Positions 14,124 through 18,210 of a stretch of 64,000 nucleotides of DNA are shown in pieces (position 1 is the first letter of the stretch; each line of letters starts with the position of its first letter). The notes beneath the pieces are model-generated. The model ran no database searches. It was not told the DNA's origin and worked only from the letters and a program-made list of their open reading frames with translations. This stretch comes from an uncultured Planctomycetota bacterium (GTDB taxonomy: Bacteria > Planctomycetota > Phycisphaerae > Tepidisphaerales > Tepidisphaeraceae), in contig CAWJEN010000003.1 of assembly GCA_963841915.1 (NCBI GenBank), forward strand, positions 32,001 through 96,000. The letters run 5' to 3'. Position numbers and translations under genes: made by a program.

Positions 14124-17100
14124 TCAAAGCTTCGCCAGATCCGCCTCGGCTTTGGCAAGCTGATCCCGCGTCTCTTGCACCAAGTGCGGGGGAGCCCGAT
14201 CGGTGTACCCCTTGTTGGACAAGCGGCCGGACAAGGCGGCGACCTGCTTCTGAAGCGCCGCCTTCTCCTTGGCGACGCGGTCGGCGTCGGCGGCCTTGTC
14301 CACGACGCCGCCGACGCGGATCGTTGTGTCGGCAGCCGTCGTTTCGGCCGCGTCCTCGACCGTCTCCTTCACCTCACAGTTGGCCCAAAGCTCAAGGGTC
14401 TGGCGCACATCGTCGGCCACCTCGACCGCGACCGGCACCGTCTGTCGCGGCGGTACCTTGTTCTCCGTTCGCACGCGACGCACCGCCTCGGCGATCTCGC
14501 GGACCCGCTCGATCGACGCCTCGGCCGCTTCGTCGGCAAACGTCACCGTCGGCCAGGCGGCGGTAATGCACCGCTCGTTTGCCGGCAAGTCGATGACGCC
14601 TTCGATGCCGCGCGTGGGCATGGCTTCGTTCAGTGCCCACCAAAGGCGTTCGCTGACGAACGGCATGATCGGGTGCATCAGTCGAAGCGCGCCGTCCAGG
14701 CAGGCCGCCAACGTCGCAGCGGCGGCGGCATCCTGGGCCTTCATCCGCGGCTTCGTCGACTCGACGTACCAGTCGCAGAAGTCCCGCCAGAAGAAGTCGT
14801 AGATGGCCGTCGCGTATCGGTCAAAGCGATAGTCGGCCAGGGCCGCGTCGCATTCGCGGACGGCCGCGGCGAGGCGCGACAGGATCCACCGGTCGGCGGT
14901 GGTCAGATCAATCTCGCCTGTCACATCGGCGTTGTGCAGGTTCGAGATGACAAACCGCCCGGCGTTCCAGATCTTGTTGGCAAAGTTGCGGCCGTGATCG
15001 AACTTGCTGCTCGTTGTGCCGGCCGCGGGTCGGTCGTCGGTCGCCGTCGCTTCACCGCTGGCGATGCCGTATGGGCTGACGCTGTGCTTGCCTTTGTGCT
15101 CCTGGATCGGCTTGAAGACGGTGTAGCCGCTGTTGTTGGTGAAGGTTTGGCCCGGGAAGGTCTCGCCGGTGTGCGGGTCGACGAGGTCGACGGGCAGGCG
15201 GACGTCCTGCGTGTGGGTCGTCATGCCGCAGAGCGTGAACCGCATGGCGTCGGCGCCGTGGGAGTCGATGACCGCCAGCGGGTCGACGCCGTTGCCGAGC
15301 GACTTGCTCATCTTCTGGCCGTGGCCGTCCTGGATCATCGCGTGGATGAAGACGTCTTTGAACGGCAGGTGCGACGCGTCCGCCCCACGCGGGCCCCGAC
15401 CGTGAGGGAGGGGTTCTGAATGAAGTTCTGAAAGGGTCGCTGGATCGAGTTCTGATGTCTGGCGGTCGTCCAGAACCCCTCCCTGACGGTCGGGGCTCGC
15501 GTGAGACTGTTCGACATCTTTTTTCGAGTCGGAGCGCTGCTCGTCGGGGTGGGCGAGGAGGTAGCGGTTGAACATGACCATCCGCGAGACCCACAGCGTG
15601 ATGATCTCGCGTGCGGTGCACAGGACGCTGGTCGGGTTCCACTGCTCGAGCGCGGGCGTGCGGTCGGGCCAGCCGAGCGTGCTCATCGGCCACAGGGCAC
15701 TGGAAAACCAGGTGTCGAGGACGTCGGGGTCCTGCTCAAATCCTGCCTTGTCCAGCTCACCAAGGAACTTGTCCGCATTGCTTGGGACGGCGTACTGGTA
15801 TCCCCACGAGCTGTCCGCTCGGCGATAGGAGTAGTACGGCGCGATGCCGTGCGGATCATCGGGATCGCCGAACGTGAGTTCATTGGGTTCCGTGCTCTCG
15901 CCCGGATCGAGGTCGCTCTGGTAAAGCGCCGACTGTGACCCGCTCCACACCGGGATCCGGTGCCCCCACCAAAGTTGGCGGCTGATGCACCAGTCGCGGA
16001 GGGCGGCGTTCCACTGCGTGTAGGTCTTGGCGTACCGGTCGGGCACGAACCGCAGCACGTCGTCGCCCAACGCGAACGATCCCTGCGAGCCCCGACCGTC
16101 AGGGAGGGGTTCTGATTCTGAGCGAGCCCCCGACACCCCTCCCTCACGGTCGGGGCTCGCATCGCTCTCGACGCTCTCGACGGACGCGGGGTTGAGCGGG
16201 CGCCCCTGACGATCGACCGTGTACCGGATCGCCCCCTCAACCGACCCCGACGTTTTGAGATAGCGCGTGCTCCCGTGACGGGTCCAGACCTTGCGCTCCC
16301 CGTCGACGAGCGACTCCTCTCGAAGACGACGCGTCGCGTACGCCTTGAAGTCCGTCATGACCTTCTCCGGCGTCGCGTCGGCCGACACGACGGCGTGCAG
16401 GTGGTTCGACCGCACGTGCAGCGCGTGAAGCGTCCAGCCGCGGTGTCGGCAGACGTCGACGATCGCGTCTTGCACCGTAATCCGCTGGGCCTCGTCGAGC
16501 TCCGTCGGCTCATGCTTGAGGCGGGCGAACTGGCGACGCTCTTCGTCTTCGTCGCCAACGAGGTAGGGCTCGCCCGGGATGTTGTGTCGTTTGGGGTCGG
16601 CGCTTCCGAGCTCGCGACCCTGGAGCCAGGTTCCGTAGGTCGTGAACGTGATGAGATACGAGAGGGTCTCCCGCGAGCCCTGAGCGTGAGCGAGGGGTTC
16701 TGAGCGAGAAGCGGAATCCCCTCCCTCACGGTCGGGGCTCGCGGGGATTTTCTCGCATCCCGTCAGTGCGGTGAGTGCGAGACCTGCGAGCGAATTCGCC
16801 GGGACGTCGGTGCCCTCGACCTTGCCGGTGTCGGGCATCCACGGAATCGGCTTCTGGACCGCGACGTACCACTGGTCACTCAGGTACGGCTCGACCGGCA
16901 CGTGGCTGCGGTAGCTGTGGCCGACGCTGTGGCGGTACGGGCGGACCTCCTCGAGCAGGTCGTGCTCCTTGAACCACGAGACGATCGCCTCGCGGGCGGC
17001 CTCGCGGGAGAGGCCGACGAACTGCCTGGCGGCGTCGGTCTCGGGCGTCCAGCCGTGTGCGTCGGAGATCGACGCGTCGGGGGCCATGATGTTGATGGCC

Positions 17101-18155
17101 GCAAGGCTGTGCCGCTGGCCGATGTCCCAGTCGTTGGGATCGTGAGCGGGCGTGACCTTCAGGAAGCCGGTGGCAAACTTGGCCTTGGGGTCGCTTTCAT
17201 CGCTCGGCATGACCACGTAGTCGTCCTCGACGATCGGGATCTCGCGGTCGACGATCGGCAGCAGGACCTTCTTCCCGCGCAACCCCGCCGCCCTCGGGTC
17301 GTTCGGGTTGATGGCGACGGCGGTGTCGCCGAGCATCGTCTCGGGACGCGTCGTGGCGACGACGACATACTCGAGTTCTCCGTCGCGAGCCCCGACCGTG
17401 AGGGAGGGGTCCGGGTCGCTCGAGGAAGACCCCTCCCTCACGGTCGGGGCTCGCGAGGTGCTCTCGGGTCGGGTCTCGTTCAACGGCGCGAGCGGATAAC
17501 GCAGGTAGTAGAACTTCCCATCGATCTCCTCGTTCTCAACCTCGTCGTCGGCGAGGGCGGTTTGGGTGACGGGGTCCCAATTGACCAGCCGCTTGCCGCG
17601 GTAGATGAGGCCGTCCTTGAAGAGGCGGAAGAAGGCCTCTCTCACGGCCGCGGCTCGTGGGGGGTCCATCGTGAAGGCGGTGCGTTCGAAGTCGCAGCTG
17701 CAGCCCATTGCCTTGAGCTGGCCGAGGATGACGGTTTCGTATTCGTCCTTCCACGCCTGGACCTTGCCGATGAACTGCTCGCGTCCCGGCTGGCCGGCCG
17801 CTTCGTCGAGCTTGTAGTCCTTCAGCGCCTTCTCACCCGCCGCCTGGAGCCGTTTGTCGACGACCGTTTGCGTCGCAATGCCCGCATGGTCGGTGCCGGG
17901 AATCCAGACCGCGTTCAGCCCCCGCATGCGGGCGTGACGCACCAGAATGTCCTGGATCGTGTTGTTCAGCGCGTGCCCGAGGTGCAGCGCAGCGGTCACA
18001 TTGGGCGGCGGGATGACGACGCTGAACGGCTCCTTGCTTGCGTCGGGCTCGGCGTGGAACAGCCGCTCGTCGTCCCAAACCTTCGCCACCTCGCTCTGCA
18101 CGGCAGTGGCGTCGTAACGGGGCGGCAGCTCGGTCGTCGGGGTCGTGTCAGACAT
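14124..18155 (-). CDS. valS: Valyl-tRNA synthetase, enlarged (about 1343 aa) by in-frame REP and transposase-domain insertions
   Basis: PPPNVTAALHLGHA (HIGH), GTDHAGIATQ, ATTRPETMLGDTA, DWCISRQLWWGHRIP, DVLDTWFSS, KMSKS, C-terminal coiled-coil arm. Confidence 0.97.
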   Translation of the reverse strand: MSDTTPTTELPPRYDATAVQSEVAKVWDDERLFHAEPDASKEPFSVVIPPPNVTAALHLGHALNNTIQDILVRHARMRGLNAVWIPGTDHAGIATQTVVDKRLQAAGEKALKDYKLDEAAGQPGREQFIGKVQAWKDEYETVILGQLKAMGCSCDFERTAFTMDPPRAAAVREAFFRLFKDGLIYRGKRLVNWDPVTQTALADDEVENEEIDGKFYYLRYPLAPLNETRPESTSRAPTVREGSSSSDPDPSLTVGARDGELEYVVVATTRPETMLGDTAVAINPNDPRAAGLRGKKVLLPIVDREIPIVEDDYVVMPSDESDPKAKFATGFLKVTPAHDPNDWDIGQRHSLAAINIMAPDASISDAHGWTPETDAARQFVGLSREAAREAIVSWFKEHDLLEEVRPYRHSVGHSYRSHVPVEPYLSDQWYVAVQKPIPWMPDTGKVEGTDVPANSLAGLALTALTGCEKIPASPDREGGDSASRSEPLAHAQGSRETLSYLITFTTYGTWLQGRELGSADPKRHNIPGEPYLVGDEDEERRQFARLKHEPTELDEAQRITVQDAIVDVCRHRGWTLHALHVRSNHLHAVVSADATPEKVMTDFKAYATRRLREESLVDGERKVWTRHGSTRYLKTSGSVEGAIRYTVDRQGRPLNPASVESVESDASPDREGGVSGARSESEPLPDGRGSQGSFALGDDVLRFVPDRYAKTYTQWNAALRDWCISRQLWWGHRIPVWSGSQSALYQSDLDPGESTEPNELTFGDPDDPHGIAPYYSYRRADSSWGYQYAVPSNADKFLGELDKAGFEQDPDVLDTWFSSALWPMSTLGWPDRTPALEQWNPTSVLCTAREIITLWVSRMVMFNRYLLAHPDEQRSDSKKDVEQSHASPDRQGGVLDDRQTSELDPATLSELHSEPLPHGRGPRGADASHLPFKDVFIHAMIQDGHGQKMSKSLGNGVDPLAVIDSHGADAMRFTLCGMTTHTQDVRLPVDLVDPHTGETFPGQTFTNNSGYTVFKPIQEHKGKHSVSPYGIASGEATATDDRPAAGTTSSKFDHGRNFANKIWNAGRFVISNLHNADVTGEIDLTTADRWILSRLAAAVRECDAALADYRFDRYATAIYDFFWRDFCDWYVESTKPRMKAQDAAAAATLAACLDGALRLMHPIMPFVSERLWWALNEAMPTRGIEGVIDLPANERCITAAWPTVTFADEAAEASIERVREIAEAVRRVRTENKVPPRQTVPVAVEVADDVRQTLELWANCEVKETVEDAAETTAADTTIRVGGVVDKAADADRVAKEKAALQKQVAALSGRLSNKGYTDRAPPHLVQETRDQLAKAEADLAKL
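15386..15503. repeat. REP doublet D inside valS (in frame)
   Basis: cacgcgggccccgaccgtgagggaggggttctg ... cagaacccctccctgacggtcggggctcgcgtg. Confidence 0.9.
16084..16161. repeat. REP doublet C inside valS, at the 3' flank of the RAYT domain
   Basis: tgcgagccccgaccgtcagggaggggt ... acccctccctcacggtcggggctcgca. Confidence 0.9.
16203..16664 (-). mobile_element. REP-associated tyrosine transposase (RAYT / IS200-like Y1 HUH) domain, in frame within valS
   Basis: YLITFTTYGTWL...HRGWTLHALHVRSNHLHAVV (HUH)...FKAYATRRL...KVWTRHGSTRYL...AIRYTVDRQG (candidate catalytic Tyr, YxxxQ-like); bracketed by REP doublets. Confidence 0.88.
16670..16745. repeat. REP doublet B inside valS, at the 5' flank of the RAYT domain (one arm divergent)
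   Basis: cccgcgagccctgagcgtgagcgagggg ... cccctccctcacggtcggggctcgcggg. Confidence 0.85.
17383..17456. repeat. REP doublet A inside the valS editing-domain region (in frame)
   Basis: Perfect 29-bp inverted repeat tcgcgagccccgaccgtgagggaggggtc / gacccctccctcacggtcggggctcgcga with a 16-nt loop. Confidence 0.92.
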
Positions 18156-18210
18156 GAGAACGAACCAGCGTAGAGCGACCGCCAATGCCTCAGCCGATAG
18201 GCTGGCGACG

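Follow-up and report, generated by a model that had tools for sequence, protein, structure and literature searches.

An in-frame RAYT-like HUH/Y1 transposase domain bordered by REP doublets within the valS gene of an uncultured Planctomycetota bacterium

Textbooks place REPs and REPINs outside genes, and RAYTs are regarded as domesticated genes that stand on their own. The locus described here raises the question of how four inverted REP doublets come to lie within the coding sequence of valS, an essential gene, without interrupting its reading frame. The window, i.e. the whole stretch of DNA that was analysed, covers 64,000 nt (contig CAWJEN010000003.1, positions 32,001-96,000) of assembly GCA_963841915.1 (uncultured Planctomycetota, Tepidisphaeraceae), a MAG of 3.63 Mb in 6 contigs with 93.8% completeness, labelled G000 in the comparisons below. 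A close strain of G000 was absent from the collections searched (best match 64% identity). The features of the locus, with the REPINs numbered in protein order, are as follows:

14124..18185, minus strand: valS, a single uninterrupted ORF of 1353 codons with a probable ATG start at 18155
17383..17456, no strand assigned: REPIN 1, an inverted pair of fully complementary 29-nt arms spaced by 16 nt; peptide at aa 244-268, RAPTVREGSSSSDPDPSLTVGA
16670..16745, no strand assigned: REPIN 2, bordering the RAYT domain upstream; aa 481-506, ASPDREGGDS..EPLAHAQGS
16191..16667, minus strand: HUH/Y1 transposase domain (RAYT-like, class 3), in frame in valS, aa 507-665
16084..16161, no strand assigned: REPIN 3, bordering the RAYT domain downstream; aa 675-701, ASPDREGGVS..EPLPDGRGS
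15386..15503, no strand assigned: REPIN 4, a long form with a 62-nt spacer containing repeated TTCTGA units; aa 895-934

The valS product matches tRNA-synt_1, Anticodon_1 and Val_tRNA-synt_C (Pfam), retains intact HLGH and KMSKS (aa 958-962) motifs and has no second copy in the 3.63-Mb assembly (93.8% complete). Searching with the 24-mer REP arm (<=3 mismatches) returned eight matches in the window (15390-15413+, 15476-15499-, 16086-16109+, 16136-16159-, 16674-16697+, 16718-16741-, 17386-17409+ and 17430-17453-), all within valS and none elsewhere in the 64 kb, with matches in 0/100 dinucleotide-preserving shuffles. These eight arms form inverted pairs with arm lengths of 38, 27, 28 and 29 nt (complementarity 89, 96, 89 and 100%, respectively), and the 1353-aa ORF that contains them has no stop codon, confirming the report of a first-pass annotation that four in-frame doublets lie within valS with no further copies in the window. 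That annotation lettered the doublets A-D, an order that holds along the protein, from high to low coordinates because valS lies on the minus strand, but not along ascending coordinates. Its peptide readings were correct: doublet A is read as RAPTVREG..PSLTVGA (aa 245-266), followed shortly by VATTRPET (aa 276-283), doublets B-D as ASPDREGG..EPL(A/P)H/DxxGS, and doublet D (aa 896-932) separates WVSRMVMF from PFKDVFIH and precedes KMSKS. The spacer words that it found to be shared are likewise real, TTCTG/CAGAA being an inner extension of the REP arms and the ~20-nt spacers of the doublets resembling one another; one arm of REPIN 2 is of a GAGC..GCGA subtype.

Relative to the ValRS structure 1GAX, REPIN 1 falls where the Rossmann-fold part gives way to the editing domain (204/209), while REPIN 4 lies between residues 503 and 510, ahead of KMSKS. 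In a 1195-residue AlphaFold2 model, pLDDT drops below 50 at aa 236-269, 477-505, 661-707 and 892-937, so that all four REPIN peptides are predicted as low-confidence loops, low pLDDT being no proof of surface exposure; this agrees with the earlier proposal of new peptide loops. The strong hairpins proposed alongside are also possible, as the doublets fold as DNA at -33 to -44 kcal/mol (z -7.5 to -9.9; 0/200 shuffles equally stable).

The same annotation invoked a resident RAYT, which is indeed present, but missed that valS itself encodes the enzyme in frame, in the stretch separating its two middle doublets. A Y1_Tnp match (PF01797; aa 567-635, E 1.1e-5, 26.0 bits against a Pfam cut-off of 23) is bordered by REPIN 2 and REPIN 3 on either side, and the domain carries ITFTTYGTW (512-520), the HUH motif H595-L-H597, VWTRHGSTRYL (633-643), the catalytic-type Y655 and Q660. 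Residues H595, H597, Y655, Q660 and G661 (H156, H158, Y216, Q221 and G222 in the numbering of alignment A2) are invariant in 33/33 aligned homologues, embedded and stand-alone. The fold is that of a TnpA: the core is modelled at pLDDT 92-98 (AF2), and 30/30 Foldseek PDB matches with E <= 1e-3 are IS200/IS608/ISDra2 TnpA or RAYT structures, the E. coli TnpA-REP structure 4ER8 among them. The domain occurs once in the assembly (tblastn, 3.63 Mb). Its tyrosine motif is RYTVDRQG (alignment consensus Y-x4-Q-G), and the YIxxNP type of RAYT class 2 (TnpA-REP) was rejected on this ground; instead, NHLH (594-597), VWT (633-635) and Y655..Q660 match the class 3 motifs of Quentin 2018. Compared with sister species G003, the RAYT domain has a pN of 0.123 and a pS of 0.665, and a dN/dS of about 0.08, rough because dS is near saturation, indicates purifying selection on the domain; the ValRS parts give 0.10-0.37 in the same comparison.

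Genome-wide, 49 arms were detected on 4/6 contigs, comprising 23 doublets and 3 single arms. Arm positions 10 and 17 covary (C..G in 34 arms, G..C in 12), which supports a putative hairpin of the form CCCC-GA-SC[GTSA]GS-GA-GGGG. Taken singly, the arms are no more stable than shuffles (z 0.4 to -0.6), so the small hairpin of the arm is proposed from covariation alone. The arm starts with (Y)G-CGAG in 48/49 copies, CGAG being the tetranucleotide 5' of the hairpin, while CCGA lies inside the arm; the arms thus lack the GTAG or CGTC end of the REP superfamilies of Di Nocera 2013, CGTC being confined to a loop variant.

This family departs from the view that REPs usually lie outside genes. When the 24-mer was mapped genome-wide, 19/23 doublets proved to be intragenic and 4/23 intergenic, and 17/23 are in frame within long ORFs, with Pfam domains flanking both sides or spanning the doublet in 13 of these 17 and on one side in 4. 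Fifteen further doublets of the same DNA sit in unrelated genes, bearing out the proposal that the doublets are inserted mobile-element DNA. Clusters occur in valS (4), carB (3), putA (3) and an amine oxidase gene (2), the last three on other contigs with no RAYT. Preservation of the frame by every copy, as suggested from valS, is not true of the genome as a whole, as two intragenic REPINs (fumC and putA site 1) coincide with frame changes; both genes have single frames at those places in sister genomes, pointing to an indel or assembly error in G000. Most frames of the element contain few stop codons or none, and its usual lengths are spaced 6 nt apart, suggesting that copies landing in tolerant loops of long housekeeping proteins would survive as loop peptides.

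Comparison with relatives indicates how old these insertions may be. A RAYT occupies the same valS site in 9/141 genomes of the family and at 21/80 named Planctomycetota loci; it fills the site in G003, G004, G009, G001, G061, G152, G044 and G126, and the cassette spans several genera and two orders. REPINs lie next to the RAYT in every embedded relative aligned, and its frame is open in all of them. Many relatives have a ValRS without the RAYT domain, and the possibility that the REPIN peptides are ancestral ValRS sequence was not borne out, as T. thermophilus ValRS and the relatives G007, G024 and G026 have no doublets. The sister-genome comparison called for by the first-pass annotation does reveal presence/absence differences: REPIN 1 has no counterpart in G003 or G009, the REPIN 4 site also holds a REPIN in G003, and valS of G001 and G003 each contain several doublets. 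On these alignments, occupancy of the same loops varies between species of the genus, and the four valS REPINs differ in age, the outer two representing additional insertions. Filled and empty sites are also found outside valS: at carB site 3 a REPIN is present in G000 and G002 and missing from G003, G004 and G009, while hrpA holds a second in-frame RAYT cassette in G002 and G004, at a site that is empty in G000, G003 and G001. Besides valS and hrpA, cassettes were found in AlaRS, AddB, a lactonase and an oxidoreductase, with the RAYT of locus L059 (G002) positioned in frame after a Gfo/Idh/MocA oxidoreductase. Embedded RAYTs form a candidate clade (SH-aLRT only 87), and a second valS group (P0047, L161 and L145) falls outside it, so that the embedded domains may have more than one origin.

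REP arm numbers in genomes with a G000-type RAYT are 38 (G001), 116 (G002) and 59 (G003); G004, whose RAYT is only 55% identical to that of G000, has 5 arms and G009 has 1. REP abundance thus tracks the RAYT lineage, as for a cognate pair, which makes catalysis of REPIN movement by the resident RAYT plausible. For G004 and G000, the ValRS cores are 83-93% identical against 55% for the RAYT, which hints that another RAYT lineage has re-invaded valS site-specifically (homing) and that descent has not been purely vertical.

We consider it reasonably probable that the doublets are REPINs of one small population served by the single class-3 HUH/Y1 transposase encoded in frame in valS. A REPIN would here consist of two REP hairpins in inverted orientation, separated by ~20 nt of spacer that is related between copies, and would move as one unit. 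The RAYT would most likely be produced as an additional globular domain within ValRS, carried on two disordered linkers encoded by REPINs 2 and 3. Its cassette would be old and mostly descended vertically at the valS site, with occasional replacement by, or copying to, other lineages and genes, and REPINs 1 and 4 would have been inserted afterwards, as copies of the same element, in two further ValRS loops. We infer that the domain is translated together with ValRS and may still cut and join REP DNA. Since valS is essential and removal would require an exact in-frame deletion, copies there would owe their persistence to this 'hard to delete' location. A bolder version, to which we would give slightly less than an even chance, is that this class-3 lineage occupies an intein-like niche without splicing, being made only inside essential housekeeping proteins, with REPINs that are mainly translated coding-sequence loops. 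The proteins concerned would be ValRS throughout Phycisphaerae and, in other places, AlaRS, HrpA and AddB; the hairpin ends of the RAYT would be read as linkers, REPINs would be its non-autonomous offspring, and the valS site would be open to renewed occupation by other RAYT lineages.

Other explanations were weighed against the same data. The first-pass annotation favoured independent local insertions in cis by the neighbouring RAYT, which would make the four doublets fairly recent products of newly made enzyme hitting the nearest DNA. valS does hold 4/23 doublets against 0.026 expected, REPIN 1 looks young (29/29 palindrome, missing in G003 and G009) and valS of G001 and G003 also carry several doublets. 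However, the clusters in carB, putA and the amine oxidase gene lie far from any RAYT, so clustering is no evidence for cis action; REPIN 4 is shared with G003, and REPINs 2 and 3 border the RAYT in all embedded relatives aligned, identifying them as parts of the cassette. The idea of inserted elements therefore stands, that of four independent events is not supported, and we regard the cis scenario as unlikely. Takeover by the host, with the domain working in ValRS as a regulatory or nucleic-acid-binding module, or else as a genome-maintenance nuclease, and with the REPINs as immobile relics, seems to us improbable. Invariance of the catalytic HxH, Tyr and Gln, REPIN occupancy that varies among species of one genus, REP copy number that tracks the RAYT lineage, the cassettes in hrpA, AlaRS, AddB, a lactonase and an oxidoreductase, and the many ValRS without a RAYT all speak against it, despite the strong purifying selection, the single copy per genome, the same valS site across long evolutionary distances and the general view of RAYTs, in the parts of the literature available here, as domesticated, vertically inherited genes.

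Removal of the inserts before the mature protein is formed, whether by cutting from the mRNA, ribosomal skipping at the hairpins or intein-like splicing, is very improbable. The hairpins are very stable, REPINs 2 and 3 could pair together (inverted pairs I3, I8 and I12) and the frame changes at a REPIN in two other genes; yet those two frames (fumC and putA) are intact in sister genomes, and conservation of the frame in 17/19 intragenic copies, together with the open RAYT frame in all relatives aligned, would be needless if the inserts were skipped. An intein was rejected, as no Hint or intein family was detected at E <= 0.01 (Pfam) and the aligned junctions lack conserved Cys/Ser/Thr or His-Asn residues. 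That the locus stems from chimeric assembly at repeats, or is a valS pseudogene in decay, is barely credible: the genome is a MAG whose assembly does contain indel errors or pseudogenes, as seen from a cstA split over three frames and from the frame changes in fumC and putA, but the same architecture recurs in > 20 independent assemblies, the only valS has 1353 open codons with HLGH and KMSKS intact, and dN/dS is well below 1 in every part of the gene.

The preferred reading, of a REPIN population served by a valS-encoded RAYT, is reminiscent of REPIN-RAYT systems (REPtrons) as presented in the available part of Bertels & Rainey 2011 (PMC3116915), with which it shares inverted REP doublets with a short spacer and long hairpins, a genomic population of copies, a single-copy HUH/Y1 transposase flanked by copies, and vertical inheritance of the enzyme under purifying selection. 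Unlike in those systems, the transposase lacks a separate gene, its reading frame being part of that of valS; copies are extragenic there and mostly intragenic here (19/23), in a small population (23 doublets), and the GTAG tag and YIxxNP motif are replaced by CGAG and Yx4Q. Class 3 TnpA-Y1 occur in Planctomycetes, their genes flanked by atypical genome-repeated hairpins, and share NH(V/L)H, W(T/A), Y....Q and an extended conserved N-terminal region with the valS domain, according to the portion of Quentin 2018 (PMC6006769) at hand. They are, however, free-standing genes of ~178 aa rather than an in-frame domain, and the 5' CnGA foot of their hairpins is not evident in the valS REPs; that portion contains no description of an in-frame location in host genes.

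In-frame REP dimers as such are already known. Di Nocera 2013 (PMC3733652) and the work on Rickettsia RPEs (Ogata 2000/2002, via PMC10969869), in the extracts available, describe in-frame palindromes, often dimers, of 20-30 aa, sometimes two per gene, in housekeeping hosts that include tRNA synthetase and helicase genes and with loops presumed. Genic copies are a minority of the GTAG or CGTC families in Di Nocera 2013, whereas they are the majority here; RPEs, to which the likeness is one of behaviour only, have no known transposase in those extracts, while the presumed transposase is itself among the in-frame inserts of valS. In our literature search, no publication described a transposase that is translated as part of an essential gene.

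Inteins are selfish elements in essential genes, and their imprecise loss is lethal. IStrons, as summarized in an abstract, share this situation with inteins and the valS insert, but inteins and IStrons carry a splicing domain or ribozyme, whereas the valS insert has neither and apparently stays in the protein.

Here, both the enzyme and most hairpin elements are coding sequence, the enzyme within the only valS of the organism. If translated and active, it would represent a new route to expression and permanence for a mobile element, with promoter, ribosome-binding site and indispensability borrowed from an essential gene, and conserved enzymes would steadily gain loops and domains in this way. 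How RAYTs move REPINs could be approached with this material, which offers a defined enzyme, a 24-nt hairpin with natural compensatory variants, and naturally filled and empty sites. The locus also bears on annotation: Quentin 2018 (PMC6006769), in the portion available, discarded unexpectedly long proteins as fusions or annotation errors, and long synthetases with Y1_Tnp have been dropped in this way.

The 24-mer CGAGCCCCGACCGTSAGGGAGGGG (≤3 mismatches) occurs eight times in the 64-kb window, while 100 dinucleotide-preserving shuffles of the window returned no match. The eight arms (27-38 nt, 89-100 % complementary) form four inverted pairs, with no further copy in the window, and all four lie within a single stop-free ORF, a class I tRNA synthetase by Pfam that also has the anticodon-binding and C-terminal arm domains of ValRS. 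The features, with the doublets (hereafter REPINs) numbered in protein order, are as follows.

14124-18185, minus strand: valS ORF of 1353 codons, with the signature motifs HLGH (aa 68-71) and KMSKS (aa 958-962) intact
17383-17456, within valS: REPIN 1
16670-16745, within valS: REPIN 2
about 500 nt between REPINs 2 and 3, in the valS frame: Y1_Tnp (IS200-like) transposase domain, aa 567-635
16084-16161, within valS: REPIN 3
15386-15503, within valS: REPIN 4

The pattern search, shuffles and ORF call thus bear out the first-pass annotation, which had placed four doublets in one open valS frame and noticed none elsewhere in the window; the encoded peptides match those it gave, and its labels A-D hold when read in protein order. 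The folding energies predicted for the doublets in single-stranded form are -33 to -44 kcal/mol (z scores -7.5 to -9.9). A tblastn search of the whole assembly (3.63 Mb, 6 contigs, 93.8 % complete) revealed a single valS and a single copy of the transposase domain.

The resident RAYT proposed previously is indeed present (Pfam Y1_Tnp, 26.0 bits against a cut-off of 23), but its in-frame position inside valS had been left unsaid. Searching the 168-aa domain against 1.84 billion representative proteins returned 2520 matches at E ≤1e-3, most of them free-standing proteins of 160-200 aa; the closest matches, however, are embedded in long proteins, namely ValRS (P0002, P0003, P0047), AlaRS (P0004, P0007, P0009, P0010, P0027), AddB (P0005), HrpA (P0011) and a lactonase (P0127). 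Across 33 aligned homologues (20 embedded, 13 free-standing), both HUH histidines, the tyrosine and a Gln-Gly pair five residues past the tyrosine are invariant (here H595, H597, Y655, Q660 and G661). An AlphaFold2 model of aa 440-725, built using the homologue alignment, has a core of pLDDT 92-98 with the order beta-alpha-beta-beta-alpha-beta-alpha, and its 30 PDB matches by Foldseek at E ≤1e-3 are without exception IS200/IS608/ISDra2 transposases or 4ER8, the REP-associated transposase of E. coli. The domain's NHLH, VWT and Y-x4-Q motifs correspond to those of the 'class 3' TnpA-Y1 proteins described by Quentin et al. 2018 (PMC6006769), which are known from Planctomycetes, Acidobacteria and Proteobacteria and whose genes are flanked by atypical repeated hairpins; that study dropped unexpectedly long proteins as fusions or annotation errors. 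Between this genome and the congeneric G003, dN/dS is about 0.08 for the transposase domain (pN 0.123, pS 0.665) and 0.10-0.37 for the ValRS parts, with dS near saturation.

Relative to Thermus thermophilus ValRS (1GAX), the protein carries the following extra segments and REP-free inserts.

aa 233-272: extra segment between 1GAX residues 204 and 209
aa 444-710: extra segment between 1GAX residues 363 and 379, containing REPIN 2, the transposase domain and REPIN 3
aa 874-939: extra segment between 1GAX residues 503 and 510
aa 749-815 (window 15741-15941): REP-free insert, partly of low confidence in the AlphaFold2 model
aa 1000-1063 (window 14997-15188): REP-free insert common to several relatives

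In an AlphaFold2 model of aa 11-1205 (24 sequences; mean pLDDT 73, pTM 0.64), the parts belonging to ValRS and the core of the transposase domain adopt a folded structure, with pLDDT mostly between 70 and 94. Stretches with pLDDT below 50 (aa 236-269, 477-505, 522-542, 661-707, 754-776 and 892-937) include all four REPIN-encoded peptides, as well as a loop in the transposase domain and an insert specific to ValRS. The model agrees with REPIN peptides lying in loops of ValRS; pLDDT, however, does not measure the surface exposure predicted for the insertion points.

Across the whole genome (≤4 mismatches), we detected 49 arms, comprising 23 doublets and three single arms. The aligned arms give the consensus (Y)G-CGAG-CCCC-GA-SC-GTSA-GS-GA-GGGG-TTCTG, with covariation between positions 10 and 17 (34 arms have C..G, 12 have G..C). 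Such covariation is consistent with a putative small hairpin comprising a G:C stem of 4 bp, a tandem G.A/A.G, two more pairs and a GTGA-type loop; as the folding energy of single arms was not significant, the proposed structure rests on the covariation. The spacers of about 20 nt are mutually related, and the doublets share common arm-inclusive lengths of 68, 74, 80 and 86 nt (plus 110); the repeating unit is therefore the doublet and not the single arm, as in REPINs. The lengths differ by 6-nt steps of TTCTGA-like units (TTCTGA/CAGAAC), for which slippage or selection for frame may be responsible. Of the four intergenic REPINs, three are of other lengths (70, 79 and 85). We rejected a target-site duplication or longer palindrome, as complementarity past the arms (0-4 nt, mode 2) amounts only to the consensus YG..CR, with no sign of duplication. 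The stop-free frames were likewise rejected as an adaptation: by our own estimate, a 23-codon frame at 64 % G+C has roughly a one-in-two chance of being open.

REPs had been described in the first-pass annotation as typically extragenic; this does not apply to the repeat in this genome, where 19 of the 23 doublets are genic, a placement opposite to that of classical REPs. The proportion is roughly that expected from unfiltered random placement at the usual bacterial coding density (our own estimate). Seventeen doublets are in frame within long ORFs, and for 13 of these Pfam domains lie on both sides of the element or span it (valS, four; carB, three; putA, two; hrpA, a class II aaRS, an amine oxidase and cstA, one each). 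The other four have a domain on one side only; they are the second doublet of the amine oxidase gene and one each in genes for an amidohydrolase, a vWA protein and a GNAT protein of 612 aa. The four intergenic doublets are positioned 5′ of groEL, 5′ of a lyase gene, between gyrB and mscS, and 3′ of mdh. Directly upstream of a lyase gene, beside an intergenic REPIN, a 401-aa ORF (G000:C5:841430-842632, minus strand; L170:1931-3133) has a match to PF17236, the family of SU10 major capsid proteins (E 2.7e-79), and may be left over from a prophage or be an encapsulin-like gene. In addition, cstA (G000:C3:105621-107762, outside the window) extends over three frames (CstA profile parts 4-268, 292-353 and 433-538), a split that is independent of the REPIN near its 3′ end and represents either a pseudogene or assembly indels.

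The remaining two doublets lie inside genes whose frame changes exactly at the element, both outside the window: fumC (G000:C4:136991-137058), where the upstream frame stops at a TGA in the REP arm, and the Pro_dh domain of putA (G000:C6:1470991-1471070). An indel or assembly error in this genome is the likelier explanation, since the sister genomes have single open frames (putA, 1174 and 1120 aa; fumC, 540 aa, with its REPIN in frame).

The doublets are also strongly clustered, with eight gaps below 1.1 kb between neighbours against 0.15 expected; none of 20,000 simulations reached eight. valS is enriched (four doublets against 0.026 expected), in line with the local-insertion reading, but clusters also occur in carB, putA and the amine oxidase gene, on other contigs and far from the transposase.

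Comparison with related genomes (G numbers) shows gain, loss or replacement of inserts at shared loops, though these patterns do not give exact ends. The sites compared are listed below.

valS REPIN 1 loop: absent in G003 and G009; different insert in G004
valS REPIN 4: counterpart in G003
carB sites 1 and 2: common to this genome and G003
carB site 2 in G004 (locus L179): other palindrome, WASAHH..GGLKPTL
carB site 3: filled in this genome and G002; empty in G003, G004 and G009
hrpA REPIN loop: filled in this genome, G003 and G001; other palindrome (WASAHH..GGLKPTL) in G004 (L193)
hrpA, further along: second complete RAYT cassette in frame in G002:C268 (L191) and G004:C115 (L193), flanked by TRHDREG.. 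and ..ALPHGRAS peptides; empty in this genome, G003 and G001

In G004, the recurring palindrome and a short repeated peptide, EERGARSEERG, found in both carB and valS (L019), suggest another family of in-frame repeats that behaves alike. G001 was excluded from the frame comparison, as its valS and carB lie in many frames, probably owing to assembly indels. A metagenome scan with ValRS aa 161-330 (80 loci, best 64 % identical) returned no close strain with an empty valS site, and in protein alignments of filled and empty carB, hrpA and valS the loops are too diverged for placing the insertion ends.

Taken together, the data support a class 3 REPIN-RAYT system whose enzyme would be expressed as an internal domain of ValRS, with translated REPINs as linkers. 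By analogy with IS200/IS605 TnpA and TnpA-REP, the enzyme would presumably act on single-stranded DNA, recognising the small REP hairpin and cutting beside it. REPIN copies entering tolerant loops without breaking the frame would survive, and in essential genes, where only exact deletions would be permitted, they would be long-lived. That the insert is translated, that the enzyme is active today and that such copies are hard to delete are inferences. The in-frame doublets, as first worded, are of a published kind: in-frame palindromic repeats in genes are reported for Rickettsia RPEs (PMC10969869) and for GTAG and CGTC REPs inside genes, over half of which are dimers or groups encoding 20-30 aa, with tRNA synthetase and helicase genes among their hosts (Di Nocera et al. 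2013, PMC3733652). In full-text literature searches we found neither a mostly genic REPIN population nor a synthetase, or another housekeeping or essential gene, that contains a RAYT/Y1 or REP-type transposase in its reading frame; cases of the latter might be listed in the supplementary material of Quentin 2018 and Di Nocera 2013.

Homologues of the domain were detected in 53 of 141 genomes of the family. The same valS site is occupied in this genome, G001, G003 and G004 (one genus) and in G009, G061, G152, G044 and G126 (five other genera), with broken valS frames in G001 and G126, while the other homologues in the family are open frames of about 160-370 aa. Among 80 named loci (one genome per species), the domain lies inside ValRS in 21, mostly labelled Phycisphaerales or Phycisphaeraceae (one Planctomycetaceae, one Vicinamibacteraceae), and in other long ORFs in three (AlaRS, a Gfo/Idh/MocA oxidoreductase in G002 and an unknown 564-aa ORF); 56 are free-standing. 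In those relatives, the embedded domain again has on either side peptides such as TSRDRxGA and PLPHGRGS, translated from a similar REP. Arms of the REP pattern are numerous in genomes with the enzyme type studied here and few in genomes lacking it (38 arms in G001, 116 in G002, 59 in G003, five in G004 and one in G009; reversed-pattern controls, 0 in all five).

Phylogenetic analysis placed 31 embedded rows in a clade with no free-standing member, with moderate support (SH-aLRT 87), and a second valS-embedded trio outside it; one row labelled valS (L059, from G002) is actually not a valS locus. The ValRS core of G004 is 83-93 % identical to that studied here, compared with 55 % for the transposase domain, which groups with G044 and an HrpA-embedded copy, apart from this genome and G003. 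In G002, the middle part of valS is absent from the assembly, and the RAYT of the type studied here (C115, L087:3334-5100) lies downstream of the oxidoreductase within one open frame of 589 aa, at a C-terminal rather than internal position.
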